Shown here piece after piece: positions 44,188 to 54,830 of a DNA stretch of 64,000 nucleotides; positions within the stretch are counted from its first letter, which is position 1, and the number at the start of each line of letters is the position of its first letter. The DNA is taken from sequence record NC_008515.1. The stretch is one strand, 5' to 3'. The position numbers and the translations under genes were made by a program. Origin of the DNA: Escherichia phage RB32. Below the pieces are notes generated by a model. That model ran no database searches. It was not told the origin of the DNA and was given only the letters and a program-made list of their open reading frames with translations.

Positions 44188-44430
44188 TTATTCCTTAATT
44201 CCTAGTACTTGTTTAAAAGTCTCGTCGTAATCAAGACTTTGGCCCGTTTGTTCTTTATATTTGTATATAATATCACTTACTTCTGATAGCATATTTTTAT
44301 ATGAACGAGTTAAAGCAGATTTAAGCACGCTGTATCTATCAGGAAATTTACCATGTTCATTATAATAAGCTATTGTTAATTCACGGACTGCCTTTTCAGC
44401 AGTCTCCATATATTCTTTACGCTTGGTCAT
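44188..44430 (-). CDS. hypothetical protein (nrdC.1 position)
   Basis: ORF track 44188..44571; probable start at internal Met [13 protein letters not shown]. Confidence 0.45.
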
Positions 44431-49745: not shown

Positions 49746-50048
49746 CTAAAAGAAACTTCTTTTACAATTTTTTCCACTGAACCATGCGCTCACTGCTTTC
49801 TTAGTCTCAGGAGCAGTGTTATCCATAAACCATTCAAAGGCAGCCTTTTTATGATTCTGGAGGGCTTCTCGGGCTTTAATCTGCTCACGGTCTATTAACA
49901 CTAACATATGAGCCTTTCTTGTCACCAAGGGCTTCTTATGATTTTTTGAATACTCCCAATCATTTGTCCATCGCATCGTTGTTGCGAATTGAAGTACAGC
50001 TTCTTTAATTTTAGTTTCGTAAATTTCACGAGCCTTTGAGTATAACAT
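49746..50048 (-). CDS. hypothetical protein
   Basis: ORF track 49746..50060; GGAGG 5 nt upstream favours the Met at 50048 (MLYSKAREIY...). Confidence 0.5.
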   Translation of the reverse strand: MLYSKAREIYETKIKEAVLQFATTMRWTNDWEYSKNHKKPLVTRKAHMLVLIDREQIKAREALQNHKKAAFEWFMDNTAPETKKAVSAWFSGKNCKRSFF

Positions 50049-50130
50049 CATTACCTCCATTTACCAGTTTAATTCTAGTCATCTTTTTGATGGCAGTCCA
50101 TATAATCTATTTCTGAACTGCCTTTTTGTC

Positions 50131-50850
50131 TTAGGATTCTTCTAAATGTCTTTTCTGAAAAGTTGATACCATACTACGATACGGTTCATTTGGATATCCG
50201 TGTTTTATAGCTTCCTTTGTAAATTTTCTCCATCCATATTTAGTTTCTTTCCAAAGCTCGAATAATTCATCTTCATACTGCCATATAGTTAAATGAGAAC
50301 GCTTTGCAGCTTTAATTCCATTAATATGCTTTTCTTTTACTGCAGGATTGTTTAGTTTCTTTTTAATAATATTACTAACTTTTCTAACAAAAACTGGGTC
50401 CTTATATCGTTGCGAAGTTTTTATTGAAGTGTTTAATTTAGCTTCCGGCGTGGATGTGACCTCTTTCATCTTTTTCTTCATATGCTGTATATGATTAGGA
50501 TTTTTCCATAAATTTATAGAATGCTTTTTGCATTTTATCCTAGTTTCATCTGCAACCTTTCCTCCTTCACCCCCGTATGACAGGTTAACACAGTTTTTTC
50601 CATATTTCAATTTACCTGCCATGATATATAATATTTCAGCTTGTACCATTTTATCATAATTATCAAAAACTTCTAAAACCGTTTTTGATAATATGTGGTC
50701 ATTTGACACTTTTACACGTTCTATATAATTTCCACTACCAACATACGAATCATTGATGTTATTAGTTATATGTCGACCATAATAGTATTTCTTAATACCT
50801 GTCTTTAAATTTAATATTTCAGTTTTATAGATAGTAAAATATTTTTTCAT
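50131..50850 (-). CDS. GIY-YIG family homing endonuclease (Seg-like)
   Basis: 239-aa ORF; N-terminal FTIYKTEILNLKTGIKKYYYGRH...YVGSG resembles the GIY-(x10-15)-YIG module; basic C-terminal half. Confidence 0.55.
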   Translation of the reverse strand: MKKYFTIYKTEILNLKTGIKKYYYGRHITNNINDSYVGSGNYIERVKVSNDHILSKTVLEVFDNYDKMVQAEILYIMAGKLKYGKNCVNLSYGGEGGKVADETRIKCKKHSINLWKNPNHIQHMKKKMKEVTSTPEAKLNTSIKTSQRYKDPVFVRKVSNIIKKKLNNPAVKEKHINGIKAAKRSHLTIWQYEDELFELWKETKYGWRKFTKEAIKHGYPNEPYRSMVSTFQKRHLEES

Positions 50851-51827
50851 TTTAATAATACCGTTTCAGCGATTTCTTCCCAACCGTTTTTGTCGGTCAT
50901 AATAAAGTCAGCAAGATAAAGAGCAGTACGCAGTGAAACATTGCGTAAACGATTAACATTGACTTTCATCCATGATAATGCTTTATAAGTTTCTTCATCA
51001 GAAAGACCGCGCTTTTGCATCATGTCGGTTGAAAGAATAACATCTTCAACCCTGACCATAATTTCTTCATTAGTGTGAACACCCAAATCCAAATAAACCG
51101 AGCGGGACACTAATGCTTGTAAATGTGGAGCAAGTTTAGTACCACGGTCTAATTCGCGGTCAATGTCAACGTTTGTGATAAAAACAATCGTTCCTTTAAA
51201 TTCAAACTCACGCTCAATGCCTTTTTCTTCTAAGTAAGAAGATGCAGTGCTCCAGCAGACTTTACGGGTCTCTCCAGTGTCCAGAGCAGCTTTCAGAAGA
51301 TTAAGAATGTCCATATCAGAGAAAACATCCACATCATCAATCAAAAGGACAGAATTCTCTTCACGATTATTCCAAAGCTGCTCATAAAGACCAATACCAG
51401 AGATTTTACCATTAATGCTTTTATATTCAATGTATCCAATATCATTTGCTTTATTTAAAGCTTTATCTAAAGAATATGTTTTACCTATACCTGCCGCACC
51501 AGAGATAATTAATGAACGAATGTTTCCGTTAATAATACCATTCGTCATCATTCCCATAACATTAAATCTTTTATTAATGCGGGTTTTCATATCTTCATAT
51601 GATTCTTTAACTTCTTCAACTTTTACACCATCATATGAAATGTCTGATTTGTAAACCCAAACACCGCGACGCTTACCGTCAATTTCAACAAAAACTTTAC
51701 CATCTCCTTGTGCATCTACCGGAGCATTATCTGGGAACCATTCACCTAAGAGCTCAAAAGTTCCAGAGATTTCTTTACCAAAGTAGATACCCTTATTGAT
51801 AGTTACAGTTTTCATTTTATTCTCCAA
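50847..51827 (-). CDS. P-loop ATPase (AAA-like)
   Basis: 326-aa ORF; Walker A GAAGIGKT, Walker B LLIDDVD; ATGA overlap with the GIY-YIG gene. Confidence 0.65.
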   Translation of the reverse strand: MENKMKTVTINKGIYFGKEISGTFELLGEWFPDNAPVDAQGDGKVFVEIDGKRRGVWVYKSDISYDGVKVEEVKESYEDMKTRINKRFNVMGMMTNGIINGNIRSLIISGAAGIGKTYSLDKALNKANDIGYIEYKSINGKISGIGLYEQLWNNREENSVLLIDDVDVFSDMDILNLLKAALDTGETRKVCWSTASSYLEEKGIEREFEFKGTIVFITNVDIDRELDRGTKLAPHLQALVSRSVYLDLGVHTNEEIMVRVEDVILSTDMMQKRGLSDEETYKALSWMKVNVNRLRNVSLRTALYLADFIMTDKNGWEEIAETVLLK

Positions 51828-51849
51828 ATCCGTATCAGTTGATAGTTGT

Positions 51850-51879
51850 ATAGTACCATAAAGCTTTATGCTTGTAAAC
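51850..51879 (-). promoter_or_regulatory. early promoter (-35 TTTACA, -10 TACTAT) with conserved leader
   Basis: minus strand GTTTACAagcataaagctttatggTACTATacaactatcaactgatacggatttggagaataaaATG. Confidence 0.45.
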
Positions 51880-51909
51880 CGTTTTGTGAAAAATTTTTGA
51901 AATAAAAAA

Positions 51910-51927
51910 GGGAGCCCGAAGGCTCCC
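51910..51927 (-). terminator. intrinsic terminator (GGGAGCC-UUCG-GGCUCCC followed by U-run)
   Basis: gggagcccgaaggctccc after the stop of the 337-aa gene; T-run follows on transcript. Confidence 0.5.
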
Positions 51928-51929
51928 TA

Positions 51930-52943
51930 TCATTTATAATAACTTCGGTGGTTTTCAAGATAGACCTTCTCAAGGAAGTCATCCCAGAAACCCATGTCTA
52001 CTTTTTGCTGCATACCGTTCTTAGAAGCTTCAGTAGATGCTGCTTCTACTTGATCGACCACATCTTCCAAAAACTCTTGAACTGTTTTAAATGGATGTTT
52101 ACCCAACTTCACGTCGAGAATAAATGGAGCATCTTGGAGTGGATAAACCAAGTCACCAGTTTTGTAAATTTCCAATAGTTGAAGTCCACCACGACAAGCA
52201 TGACTCAGAGCTTTCCAGTCAATGCCTTCATTGGCTTCGGCCTTACGAGCGCGTTCACCATATTCAGCATCTAATTTGTTCAGTGACTGCTTAAGCTCAA
52301 TAAGAGAAAGAGTTGTCTGATATTTACGACCCAACACAGTGTAGAACGTTTGTGGGCCTGTTTTCTCATGATTATGGAACACCCATTCACAGAATTCGTT
52401 TTCTGGAAGACGATGCTTAATATCTTCAACTTTAGTACGACGCTGCTTAATGGAACCGTCTTCTTGGTAATCAACCCATTGCTCAGGGATTTGATTAACT
52501 ACTTTCAATACATCGCGTAATGCAGCCAAACGAGAACCCTTGACGCCATATTTAGAAGCTTGCTTACGGACATATCCTAAATAGGATTTCATGTTAGTCG
52601 TATAAAAACGAGAACGGTTGTCTTGAATAAACTTCCACACATCAGGCAAATCAGATTTAACCACTAATTCAGGTGGAGTGTGAAGCATATCCAATGCTAC
52701 AGTTTCACCATCTGCTGCTAATTTAAAGAAATATTTAAGACTATATAGTTCATGGTCAATATCATCTTTAGTGTTTTTAGATGATGTGTTGTTGGTATTT
52801 TTACTCATATGCTCTTTAACATTTCCGATAAGAATATCGCGAGCAGGAGGAACAAAAATTTCTTTAAAATCTACATCAGATTCTGGGGTAGAAGTTCCAT
52901 AAAGATGACTACCAAAATAGCTTTTCATTACTGTTTTCATCAT
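51930..52943 (-). CDS. nucleotidyltransferase-fold protein (minimal NTase signature GS-x3-G-x5-SDVD)
   Basis: 337-aa ORF; N-terminus MMKTVMKSYFGSHLYGTSTPESDVDF fits the Pol-beta-superfamily NTase motif. Confidence 0.55.
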   Translation of the reverse strand: MMKTVMKSYFGSHLYGTSTPESDVDFKEIFVPPARDILIGNVKEHMSKNTNNTSSKNTKDDIDHELYSLKYFFKLAADGETVALDMLHTPPELVVKSDLPDVWKFIQDNRSRFYTTNMKSYLGYVRKQASKYGVKGSRLAALRDVLKVVNQIPEQWVDYQEDGSIKQRRTKVEDIKHRLPENEFCEWVFHNHEKTGPQTFYTVLGRKYQTTLSLIELKQSLNKLDAEYGERARKAEANEGIDWKALSHACRGGLQLLEIYKTGDLVYPLQDAPFILDVKLGKHPFKTVQEFLEDVVDQVEAASTEASKNGMQQKVDMGFWDDFLEKVYLENHRSYYK

Positions 52944-53401
52944 TCAGCCTTATATTCAATAACAGGACATACTTTAGCTTTACGAGCTTTTAAAAATTCA
53001 ACGATAATCGATTTCTTGGGTTGAATAGGAGGTAAACCTTTATACGCCCTATCAATATTTTCTACGTGTAAAGCATAATCCTTTTTCCATTTATAATCTT
53101 TATATTTTTCACGCAAATGTACAGGAATAACAAATGAACCAATAATAAGTAAAACAACCAAAAGCGCAAGTATAAATGCTGATGGAAGCAAAGTCCATAA
53201 ACTACCAAAAATAAGCCAACGCTGTAGGCTTTCTGCACAAATAATTGTTAGCCCTACGAGTATAGCACATCCAAAAATAGAAACGAAAAATGTAGGAATG
53301 GCAATAGACCAAAAATATGCGCATAGTGTCTTAGGTCGTTGCCATTCATCGTTAAACATTTTGAATAATTTATAGTGCCAAGAGTTTTCATTAATAATCA
53401 T
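52940..53401 (-). CDS. membrane protein (three predicted TM helices)
   Basis: 153-aa ORF; ATGA overlap with the NTase gene. Confidence 0.55.
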   Translation of the reverse strand: MIINENSWHYKLFKMFNDEWQRPKTLCAYFWSIAIPTFFVSIFGCAILVGLTIICAESLQRWLIFGSLWTLLPSAFILALLVVLLIIGSFVIPVHLREKYKDYKWKKDYALHVENIDRAYKGLPPIQPKKSIIVEFLKARKAKVCPVIEYKAE

Positions 53402-53403
53402 AA

Positions 53404-53925
53404 TTATCCTTTCATTGAAGGCGTAACGGTTGTTAAATACTTAATCATAGCTTCAGCTTCTGATTTTGATAATGAAATTTCTCCATTGTTTTGACGAATA
53501 GAAATAAAATCCGGATGACGGTCACCACCAGCTTTTAAAACACACATATAAGTATCAGTTTCATCTTCAATATTTGAAATGATTGAAGCAGTTCCACATG
53601 AATGCGGTTTTTGATAAATCAATACAGCTTTTCTTCCGCCATTTGACTGTTCATAGGCTTTTAATACATCAAACAAATCAGTTCTTTTATCAATAGCTAA
53701 AATGTTATTTTCATCTTCAATGTTAAATCCTTCGGATACTTCATAAAGCGTTACCCATAAATCACCGATGTCAATAACAGCATTTACTTTTCCACGGCTT
53801 TCAAGAATATGACAAATTTTCTTGATTTCGTCATAGCTCATTTTAATAATATCATCTCCTTGACTAAGAAAGATGTCATTTTTAAATTCAACGCGAATTA
53901 AACCGCTTCCACTTGAAATAAACAT
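53404..53925 (-). CDS. hypothetical protein, paralogue of the next ORF
   Basis: 173-aa ORF ending ...GEISLSKSEAEAMIKYLTTVTPSMKG. Confidence 0.55.
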   Translation of the reverse strand: MFISSGSGLIRVEFKNDIFLSQGDDIIKMSYDEIKKICHILESRGKVNAVIDIGDLWVTLYEVSEGFNIEDENNILAIDKRTDLFDVLKAYEQSNGGRKAVLIYQKPHSCGTASIISNIEDETDTYMCVLKAGGDRHPDFISIRQNNGEISLSKSEAEAMIKYLTTVTPSMKG

Positions 53926-53931
53926 ATTTCC

Positions 53932-54465
53932 TCACTTTGAAATCATAGTTGGAATGACAGAATCAAGATAAGTCTTTAGTGCAATAGCTTCGTCTTTGTT
54001 TAATGTAATGATATGTGATCGAAAATCGTCAATTTGACGAATAGATACTACATCTCCCTCTTCATAGCATTTTGAAACATTTAAAATAGTTTCATCATTC
54101 TGATTACAGGAGTTAGTAATAATAGCATTACAATTTTTGAGCCATTTTAAACTATGTTTTCTTTCATTAGAATAATAAAAATATTTAATCTTAGCTATAA
54201 AACTATCCCAATGGATAACTGATAAACACATTGACTCACTTTTAATATTAAATCCTGGGCATGAAGAATAAAAATGAATTTTGTGCTCATCATTGATGCT
54301 TACTATTTTATCAGTATAAGGATATTCAATTTGGGTTAAATGAATGATTTCACTAGGCGTAAAATATAGCATATCGTCTTCTTGCGTCAAACGATACATG
54401 TTATTTACTTTTTCTATAGCCAATTCACCAAAAAGCGGACTAACTTCTAATACTAATCGTTTCAT
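53932..54465 (-). CDS. hypothetical protein, paralogue of the previous ORF
   Basis: ORF track 53932..54489 (GTG); ATG start MKRLVLEV; ends ...IITLNKDEAIALKTYLDSVIPTMISK. Confidence 0.5.
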   Translation of the reverse strand: MKRLVLEVSPLFGELAIEKVNNMYRLTQEDDMLYFTPSEIIHLTQIEYPYTDKIVSINDEHKIHFYSSCPGFNIKSESMCLSVIHWDSFIAKIKYFYYSNERKHSLKWLKNCNAIITNSCNQNDETILNVSKCYEEGDVVSIRQIDDFRSHIITLNKDEAIALKTYLDSVIPTMISK

Positions 54466-54624
54466 ATTGATTCTCTTCGACTCACTCACAATTACATACT
54501 CCTTTGAATAATATCAATAATGTTGTTCACCAGATTATAAGTAAACATTGGGTAATTATATTGAATCATTACATACACAACAAACAAAACTTTCATTCTC
54601 TTCTCCTTGACAGTTGACAAGATT

Positions 54625-54654
54625 ACTATACCATAACCTTGCCAACTTGTAAAC
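54625..54654 (-). promoter_or_regulatory. early promoter (-35 GTTTACA, -10 TATAGT)
   Basis: minus strand GTTTACAagttggcaaggttatggTATAGT. Confidence 0.45.
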
Positions 54655-54656
54655 CG

Positions 54657-54830
54657 TTAAATGTTGTTTTCAATAAAATTTTGAAGCTTTGTGTGAGCAT
54701 CAACCATGATTTTCATTTCTTCTTTGGCGAAAGCTGTACCTCTTTCCCGAGCAGAATACTCATAGTCAGAAACTGCATTAGCATATTCTTCAATTAGCTT
54801 CATTAAAAACATCTGCTTTTCAGTTTTCAT
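54657..54830 (-). CDS. small hypothetical protein, below ORF-track cutoff
   Basis: 57-codon ORF read by hand (MKTEKQMFLMKLIEEYANAVSDYEYSAREGTAFAKEEMKIMVDAHTKLQNFIENNI). Confidence 0.3.
   Translation of the reverse strand: MKTEKQMFLMKLIEEYANAVSDYEYSARERGTAFAKEEMKIMVDAHTKLQNFIENNI

Follow-up and report, generated by a model that had tools for sequence, protein, structure and literature searches.

Bacteriophage T4 founded the RNA-repair field, with its Pnkp and Rnl1 enzymes directed against PrrC, and RloC-type nucleases have been proposed to defeat Pnkp/Rnl1 repair via excision of the wobble nucleotide. In this report, we examine a group of minus-strand early genes of Escherichia phage RB32 (sequence record NC_008515.1), centered on the orthologs of T4 nrdC.11 and nrdC.10, within a stretch of 64,000 nucleotides that we call the window. 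An earlier note, made from the letters alone, had proposed that a P-loop ATPase, a protein with a nucleotidyltransferase (NTase) fold and a small membrane protein form a co-transcribed unit here, with an embedded GIY-YIG endonuclease gene, and that this composition recalls nucleotide-signalling or abortive-infection modules, or their phage-encoded antagonists. What that note had observed is confirmed: the open reading frames (ORFs), motifs, hairpin, promoter and overlaps all lie on the minus strand where it had read them. Its interpretation is partly supported.

The RlaP family owes its name to an association with RNA ligase genes, and its phage members were predicted to put back nucleotides (the wobble base) lost to RloC-type nucleases before ligation takes place (PMC7824862). 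More recently, two Pseudomonas RlaPs were reported to add one or two nucleoside monophosphates to RNA 3'-OH ends, to prefer as acceptor the 5' half of a cleaved-tRNA mimic, to accept dATP while never extending DNA, and to be required for regaining chargeable tRNA after nucleotide loss (bioRxiv 10.64898/2025.12.29.696909, December 2025). The same work assigned T4 NrdC.11 to a separate PF10127 group, cluster 5 in the sequence similarity network (SSN) presented there. The family is thus already named, its bacterial members are biochemically characterized, and the nucleotide-restoring role of a phage RlaP is a proposal of the literature that is not new here.

Drawing on gene identities, family membership, conserved catalytic residues, transcription signals and comparative distributions, we find that the locus is ordinary and known, consisting of four already catalogued T4-type early genes. 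We consider it probable that it is simply the T-even 'nrdC-mobD' early accessory region, holding four independent genes, one of which, nrdC.11, encodes an RNA-repair enzyme. The practical outcome is negative: the cluster does not belong on a list of candidate signalling or abortive-infection modules. Enterobacteria phage RB33 (KM607001.1; record coordinate = window + 119) matches the 3.5 kb surrounding the locus at 100% identity, and many other Tequatrovirus genomes show 96-98.5% identity to the same 3.5 kb. In transcription order, the minus-strand annotation of RB33 reads mobD.2, mobD.1, a 173-aa (amino acid) gene, a 153-aa gene, nrdC.11, nrdC.10, the endonuclease gene (labeled 'putative site-specific intron-like DNA endonuclease') and nrdC.9. 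The T4 order is mobD.1, mobD (HNH), nrdC.11, nrdC.10, nrdC.9, the 153-aa gene and the GIY-YIG gene being absent at these positions.

NrdC.11 and the RlaP family

The NTase is 98% identical to T4 NrdC.11 (Y05H, NP_049709) and bears FGSHLYGTSTPESDVDF. Its reading from the first ATG gives 337 aa, and the second ATG, at 52940, which is annotated in GenBank, gives 336 aa. The protein matches Pfam RlaP (PF10127) with 44.2 bits against a gathering threshold of 23 bits (E = 2.5e-11), and PHROG 388 'nucleotidyltransferase'. Residues G11, S12, D23, D25 and D85 do not vary in an alignment of 36 T4-like homologues. When 1.84 billion representatives were searched with a profile, 1,485 clusters were returned at E <= 1e-30; among the best 150, most matches are full-length (about 310-350 aa). 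Among 52 diverse relatives sampled from this search (32-54% identity to RB33), G11 and S12 show no variation, D23, D25 and D85 are at least 90% conserved, and a match to RlaP is found in every case. The NTase signature read in the earlier note is thus present, and the catalytic carboxylates are retained. Judged by its sequence, NrdC.11 is classified here as a divergent RlaP-family nucleotidyltransferase with three conserved, presumably catalytic, carboxylates.

Compared with the bacterial enzymes PfRlaP and PaRlaP, NrdC.11 has the same catalytic set (hG[GS]...DxD and a third Asp) and what seems to be the same predicted succession of an N-terminal NTase domain and a C-terminal helical domain; in its AlphaFold (AF2) model (pLDDT, the predicted local distance difference test, 88.7), the first of these is an alpha/beta domain. 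It differs in exceeding the 249-position Pfam profile by about 60-80 aa, in carrying a beta-rich insert, in belonging to SSN cluster 5 and not to cluster 1a (10.64898/2025.12.29.696909), and in having its gene outside any RtcB or RNA-ligase operon. The resemblance to two-domain NTases of the kanamycin nucleotidyltransferase type (1kny, 3c18), whose acceptor is a small molecule and not RNA, amounts to 8-11% identity with a low global TM-score of 0.24-0.34.

Membership in the CD-NTase (CBASS), MNT and AbiEii families, toward which the earlier note had pointed, was considered and ruled out by the RlaP match and by searches with profile models: PADLOC gave no NTase match at E <= 0.1, NCBIfam gave nothing above its cut-off (the MntA model, E = 0.06, reached 13.2 bits for a cut-off of 60), and Pfam NTP_transf_2 stayed under its own cut-off (E = 0.091).

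A more specific comparison concerns HalB of the Hailong system (PDB 9dbh/9dbj), which makes oligodeoxyadenylate and has the HalA channel as its partner. The fold of NrdC.11 resembles that of HalB, and the gene is ATGA-coupled to that of a membrane protein; it is conceivable that NrdC.11 is a HalB-like (deoxy)oligonucleotide synthase whose product gates the adjacent membrane protein, as in a Hailong-like pair, or shuts the host HalA channel. Were this true, the decoy product would be a phage counter-measure to a DNA-gated defence. We hold it to be extremely unlikely. The likeness is limited to the shared NTase core, at 16% identity; there is no sequence-level relationship, and the Pfam family of NrdC.11 is a different one, RlaP, which all 52 diverse relatives match. 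Searches of PDB sequences, with NrdC.11 as a single query or with a 52-sequence profile, gave no NTase match, hence no link to HalB (PfRlaP was not in the searched PDB set). The activities differ too: RlaP extends RNA by one or two nucleotides, then stops, and does not extend DNA (10.64898/2025.12.29.696909). As for the membrane protein, its best match among PDB sequences is a non-significant one to CrcB (E = 1), and it is not a conserved partner of the NTase: its gene directly adjoins nrdC.11 in some T-even genera only, and neither the T4 stretch examined nor any of the distant loci contains it. No pair of a HalB-type NTase and a HalA-type channel was found at the locus.

What NrdC.11 most likely does, in our analysis, is serve phage RNA repair against nucleotide-excising anticodon nucleases. 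It would act as an RNA 3'-end nucleotidyltransferase that restores lost nucleotides, after which the phage's own Pnkp and RNA ligase would reseal tRNAs that had lost a nucleotide to a host RloC-type anticodon nuclease, and such repair would amount to a counter-defence step. If NrdC.11 does restore the wobble nucleotide, T-even phages carry the next move in the tRNA-repair arms race. The classical RNA-repair partners pseT and rnlA are both present in RB33. Moreover, NTase and Rnl1 are found in almost equal numbers of phage records from genus to genus and the numbers for the ATPase diverge (Table 1), a pattern that fits the RNA-repair link and is suggestive only.

Table 1. Phage records with homologues of the NTase, Rnl1 and the ATPase, totalled per host genus (these totals do not represent co-occurrence at the level of single records)
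Genus	NTase	Rnl1	ATPase
Escherichia	639	637	556
Klebsiella	286	287	149
Shigella	83	83	76
Aeromonas	75	77	48
Acinetobacter	69	69	72
Enterobacter	56	56	36
Vibrio	59	54	121

Several points weigh against assigning RNA repair to NrdC.11. RNA-end addition is demonstrated for the Pseudomonas enzymes, and for the phage protein it is predicted. The RlaP profile matches the N-terminal NTase half only (profile positions 23-142 of 249), and in the AF2 model a beta-rich insert is added at about residues 150-212; substrate choice may therefore differ from that of bacterial RlaP. RB33 pseT and rnlA lie about 80 kb from nrdC.11 and are not its neighbours, so that the gene-neighbourhood link which defines the family is absent here. 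The parallel between NTase and Rnl1 may just reflect that both are near-universal in Straboviridae. Finally, it is the PseT ortholog, and not that of NrdC.11, that was singled out for its importance in a clinical isolate (HIDEN-SEQ preprint).

Some of these points would also suit a different role at RNA 3' ends, such as the mending of tRNA 3'-CCA ends that host toxins have trimmed or blocked, or the tailing of host or phage transcripts so that their stability changes. The RlaP family evidence applies equally to it, RlaP acts in vitro on any RNA 3'-OH with moderate specificity (10.64898/2025.12.29.696909), the NrdC.11 subfamily is divergent and has an extra insert, and no gene-neighbourhood tie to ligases exists in T4-like phages. 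Set against this are the preference of the bacterial enzymes for the 5' half of a cleaved-tRNA mimic and the genus-level distribution that parallels Rnl1, and we regard such a role as unlikely, while granting it a real, if minor, chance.

Genetic data from T4 agree with an accessory function. In transposon sequencing, nrdC.10 and nrdC.11 are non-essential (insertions at 69/71 and 65/68 sites, respectively), both are 'Not Fit' in a dCas13d knock-down screen, and a deletion running from nrdC.11 to mobD.3 is tolerated (PMC9825161). Such dispensability in laboratory E. coli is as expected for conditional accessory genes. Literature searches brought up no functional study of either phage gene, nrdC.10/Y05G or nrdC.11/Y05H.

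Two transcription units and an inherited gene order

The features of the locus are collected in Table 2.

Table 2. Features of the nrdC.11-nrdC.10 locus (window coordinates)
Feature	Position	Strand	Basis
Small membrane protein, 153 aa (RB33_098)	52940..53401	-	ORF, hydropathy, PHROG 944
nrdC.11 ortholog, RlaP-family (PF10127) Pol-beta-fold nucleotidyltransferase, 337 aa	51930..52943	-	Pfam, PHROG 388, T4 identity
Intrinsic terminator ending the mobD.2-nrdC.11 transcription unit	51903..51928	-	folding, conservation
Sigma-70-type (T4 early-like) promoter for nrdC.10	51850..51878	-	hexamers, conservation
nrdC.10 ortholog, AAA+ ATPase, 322 aa	50847..51815	-	annotated start, homologue alignment, model
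Probable free-standing Seg-like GIY-YIG homing endonuclease, between nrdC.10 and nrdC.9	50131..50850	-	PHROG 314, PADLOC HEase

After the NTase stop, a terminator hairpin (51928-51909, GGGAGCC-UUCG-GGCUCCC) is followed by six U residues. Its minimum free energy is -17.7 kcal/mol (z = -3.67), and none of 200 shuffled sequences folds as well. Downstream of it stands a promoter, TTTACA-17-TACTAT, with an upstream extended TG. A generic promoter scan found 39 promoters for 33.4 expected from shuffles, that is, no enrichment, and the promoter call is therefore based on position and conservation. T4 carries both terminator and promoter unchanged, and the promoter is also conserved in three other loci (L009, L049 and L019). 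In the last of these, where the NTase is 76% identical, the stem is kept by compensatory changes (AAAGGCC/GGCCTTT) and both promoter hexamers are present. The early promoter and the strong terminator announced by the earlier note are thus present and conserved, and they divide the region into two transcription units, so that its term 'co-transcribed' holds within each unit and fails across the terminator. Neither a canonical late promoter TATAAATA nor a MotA-box middle promoter was found in 50000-54700.

Among T4-like phages (L007-L084), the spacer between nrdC.11 and nrdC.10 (window 51816-51929 here) may be as short as 112 nt or as long as 2,290 nt, a variation that marks it as an insertion hot spot.

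The gene overlaps on which the earlier note laid stress are present. The TGA of the membrane-protein ORF overlaps the first ATG of the NTase (ATGA at 52943-52940; from the annotated second ATG, the overlap is 1 nt), and the ATPase stop overlaps the endonuclease ATG in the same way (ATGA at 50850-50847). As a special signal they do not hold up: across the annotated 15.5 kb around the locus, 4-nt overlaps occur at 7 of 33 junctions and overlaps of any length at 13, and at most NTase loci the ATGA overlap is formed with an upstream gene of any kind, be it a membrane protein, MobD or various soluble proteins. The idea that an ATGA overlap betrays a functional pair was rejected on both counts, overlaps being common in the region and the upstream partner of the NTase variable. 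The coupling of the membrane gene to nrdC.11 would then be a generic stop/start overlap that results from T4 gene packing.

For a broader view, we compared the surroundings of NTase homologues (82 loci) and of ATPase homologues (79 loci). Synteny of the genes, a check proposed in the earlier note, is seen in related T-even phages. With an NTase at least 60% identical to that of RB33, the ATPase follows downstream on the same strand in 33 of 40 loci; at 50-60% identity it does so in 5 of 23, all Acinetobacter-type, and below 50% in none of 18. Conversely, an RlaP gene lies within 10 kb of the ATPase in 17 of the 79 ATPase loci, and all 17 of these ATPases are at least 61% identical to that of RB33. 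Five genomes have both genes at a distance of 39-111 kb from each other: Aeromonas-type ones, Vibrio VH7D and one of metagenomic origin. Klebsiella phage records with the NTase outnumber those with the ATPase by about 137, and Vibrio phage records show an excess of about 62 the other way. The NTase-ATPase adjacency is thus confined to T-even and Acinetobacter T4-like phages. This lineage-limited adjacency, the conserved terminator and promoter and the routine nature of the overlaps lead us to conclude that proximity reflects an inherited T-even gene order and not an operon of joint function.

The 153-aa membrane protein matches PHROG 944 'membrane protein' (E = 1.9e-50). Its hydropathy profile has two long hydrophobic stretches, at about residues 25-60 and 62-98, and its C-terminal tail is rich in Lys and Arg. 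The hydrophobic stretches behind the earlier count of three transmembrane segments are thus there, and the count itself becomes two or three possible segments. Of the 40 loci whose NTase is at least 60% identical, 35 have a homologue (26-50% identity) no more than 2.5 kb upstream of the NTase gene, and in only 12 of these 40 is it directly adjacent; homologues are almost absent from more distant NTase loci. In the T4 stretch examined (43-58 kb) there is no homologue, and mobD occupies the site. We conclude that the protein is a lineage-restricted (Tevenvirinae) neighbour of nrdC.11. One Tevenvirinae genome (L013:8782-11011) carries a membrane-protein homologue, a MobD homologue (79% to T4 MobD) and the NTase; there, the insertion of MobD seems to have parted the membrane gene from nrdC.11, and this gene order suggests a route by which T4 came to be without the membrane gene.

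These comparisons bear directly on the proposal that NTase, ATPase and membrane protein make up a nucleotide-signalling or abortive-infection-like module, or an antagonist of CBASS, Pycsar, Thoeris or toxin-antitoxin systems. The three genes are indeed clustered, co-oriented and near each other across Tevenvirinae, and they sit in an early region rich in anti-defence genes. T4 nrdC.1 was reported to be an inhibitor of Septu defence (HIDEN-SEQ preprint), so this early region contains counter-defence genes; the nrdC.1 ortholog (RB33_086) is found within it at window 44188-44430 (-). We nevertheless judge the proposal very unlikely. No PADLOC defence model matches the NTase, the ATPase or the membrane protein, and the NTase is an RlaP and not a CD-NTase, MNT or AbiEii protein. 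A conserved terminator and promoter separate NTase and ATPase, across a spacer that reaches 2290 nt from a minimum of 112. The phyletic distributions of the two differ, each being solitary in many lineages or far from the other where both occur, and the T4 stretch examined is devoid of the membrane gene. What survives of the antagonist idea is a counter-defence role that is plausible for the NTase alone, and not for a three-gene module.

A narrower link could still connect the two larger genes: in T-even and Acinetobacter T4-like phages, NrdC.10 might assist NrdC.11 as a lineage-specific partner, for instance by remodelling RNA or tRNA in an ATP-driven manner so as to feed the NTase. The order NTase then ATPase on one strand, found in 38 of the 63 loci with an NTase of at least 50% identity, and the early expression of both genes speak for it. 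The separate promoters with a terminator between, the variable genes inserted between NTase and ATPase, the Aeromonas and Vibrio phages that keep both genes far apart, and the different neighbours of the ATPase in distant phages (see below) all speak against it, and we see it as highly improbable.

NrdC.10, an AAA+ ATPase

The ATPase is 99% identical to T4 NrdC.10 (Y05G, NP_049708) over residues 1-316, and matches PHROG 1250 (unknown function) from end to end. The earlier note was right about its Walker A (GAAGIGKT) and Walker B (LLIDDVD) motifs, and its length of 326 aa needs revision. That reading starts at a TTG (51827) within the Shine-Dalgarno sequence (TTGGAG); 39 of 39 aligned homologues begin no more than two residues away from the annotated ATG at 51815, which, from this alignment, is most likely the true start and gives 322 aa.

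The 39 homologues, down to 53% identity, share invariant Walker A and Walker B (D160, D161) motifs, N215, an S-R238-S motif, and R291/R296. By their position, N215, the R238 motif and R291/R296 would correspond to sensor 1, the arginine finger and sensor 2, respectively. In the model (pLDDT 89.7), about 70 N-terminal residues form a five-strand beta domain, which is followed by a long helix, an AAA+ core and a helical lid. The whole set of AAA+ features is thus there, and NrdC.10 is a complete AAA+ protein whose clade is ambiguous: Pfam AAA families, clamp-loader PHROGs and Hda give weak, sub-threshold matches, and a search of PDB sequences returned noise only. Behind its own early promoter, NrdC.10 would be an active-looking oligomeric AAA+ ATPase.

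Close homologues are all on phage-sized contigs, and NrdC.10 is a phage AAA+ protein of wide conservation. In 24 distant, mostly metagenomic T4-like loci, a UvsW-like helicase (ResIII/Helicase_C) comes directly after the ATPase, at a spacing of 10-470 nt, and farther in three of the 24 (among L114-L152, for example L123:9947-12900). In 13 distant loci, the ATPase is located after UvsX (RecA) and gp32 homologues. From these neighbours, one may guess that NrdC.10 is a remodeller or loader associated with replication or recombination. A role in DNA metabolism is a guess and a weak lead, and it counts against our overall picture that what points to this role is solely the neighbourhood of distant relatives and generic fold matches. 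The association of NrdC.10 with UvsW, UvsX and gp32 among marine T4-like phages constitutes a modest new lead. At one locus (L138:5242-7821), the UvsW-like ORF has 859 aa, compared to about 481 usually, and holds an intein-like insert (first Cys, last His-Asn) just past the helicase Walker A region.

Relative to T4, position and promoter of the ATPase gene are unchanged. What differs is its C-terminus: the last six residues are changed and the protein is 3 aa shorter, because, as we read it, a homing endonuclease gene inserted at the 3' end of nrdC.10.

A probable homing endonuclease and the mobD neighbourhood

The GIY-YIG-type endonuclease recognized in the earlier note was borne out, probably as a homing enzyme. 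PHROG 314 'homing endonuclease' (E = 1.7e-30) matches it, as do the HEase models of PADLOC (E = 5e-8), the only PADLOC match among the five proteins scanned. Its N-terminal half is 31% identical to SegH and 26% to SegB (E = 2e-6 to 4e-6). Pfam GIY-YIG gave no match at E <= 0.1; read by eye, the sequence has the motif YYY-x11-YVGSG, then Arg, Glu and Asn at I-TevI-like spacing. Copies of at least 95% identity are found in 65 phage records, compared to about 500 records with a flanking ATPase of at least 95% identity, and the gene is absent from T4. More distant relatives adjoin tk, uvsY, nrdD and tRNA genes. This sporadic presence at one site among collinear genomes, with relatives at other sites, is typical of a mobile element, and on sequence grounds we class the protein as a probable selfish, free-standing Seg-like homing endonuclease.

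It shares with the Seg family (SegH, SegB) the N-terminal GIY-YIG-like motif, the sporadic distribution, and the organization as a promoter-less cassette that overlaps the upstream gene. It differs in its insertion site, between nrdC.10 and nrdC.9, which is unoccupied in T4, and in a C-terminal region like that of the HNH enzyme MobD. In T4, it is mobD, a different homing endonuclease, that stands at the other side of the same nrdC.11-nrdC.10 pair. Between residues 130-231 of the endonuclease (window 50131-50460) and the C-terminal part of T4 MobD (L002:13472-13777), identity is 32% (E = 1.8e-6), and the GIY-YIG protein and the HNH protein appear to share a probable DNA-binding module.

Upstream of the membrane-protein gene, two tandem T4_y05I_N/T4_y05I_C paralogs (Pfam 'putative transcription factor') occupy window 53404-53925 and 53932-54489 on the minus strand. 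They are MobD.1 and an extra 173-aa copy; in the region of T4 examined, mobD.1 is the sole representative of this paralog pair.

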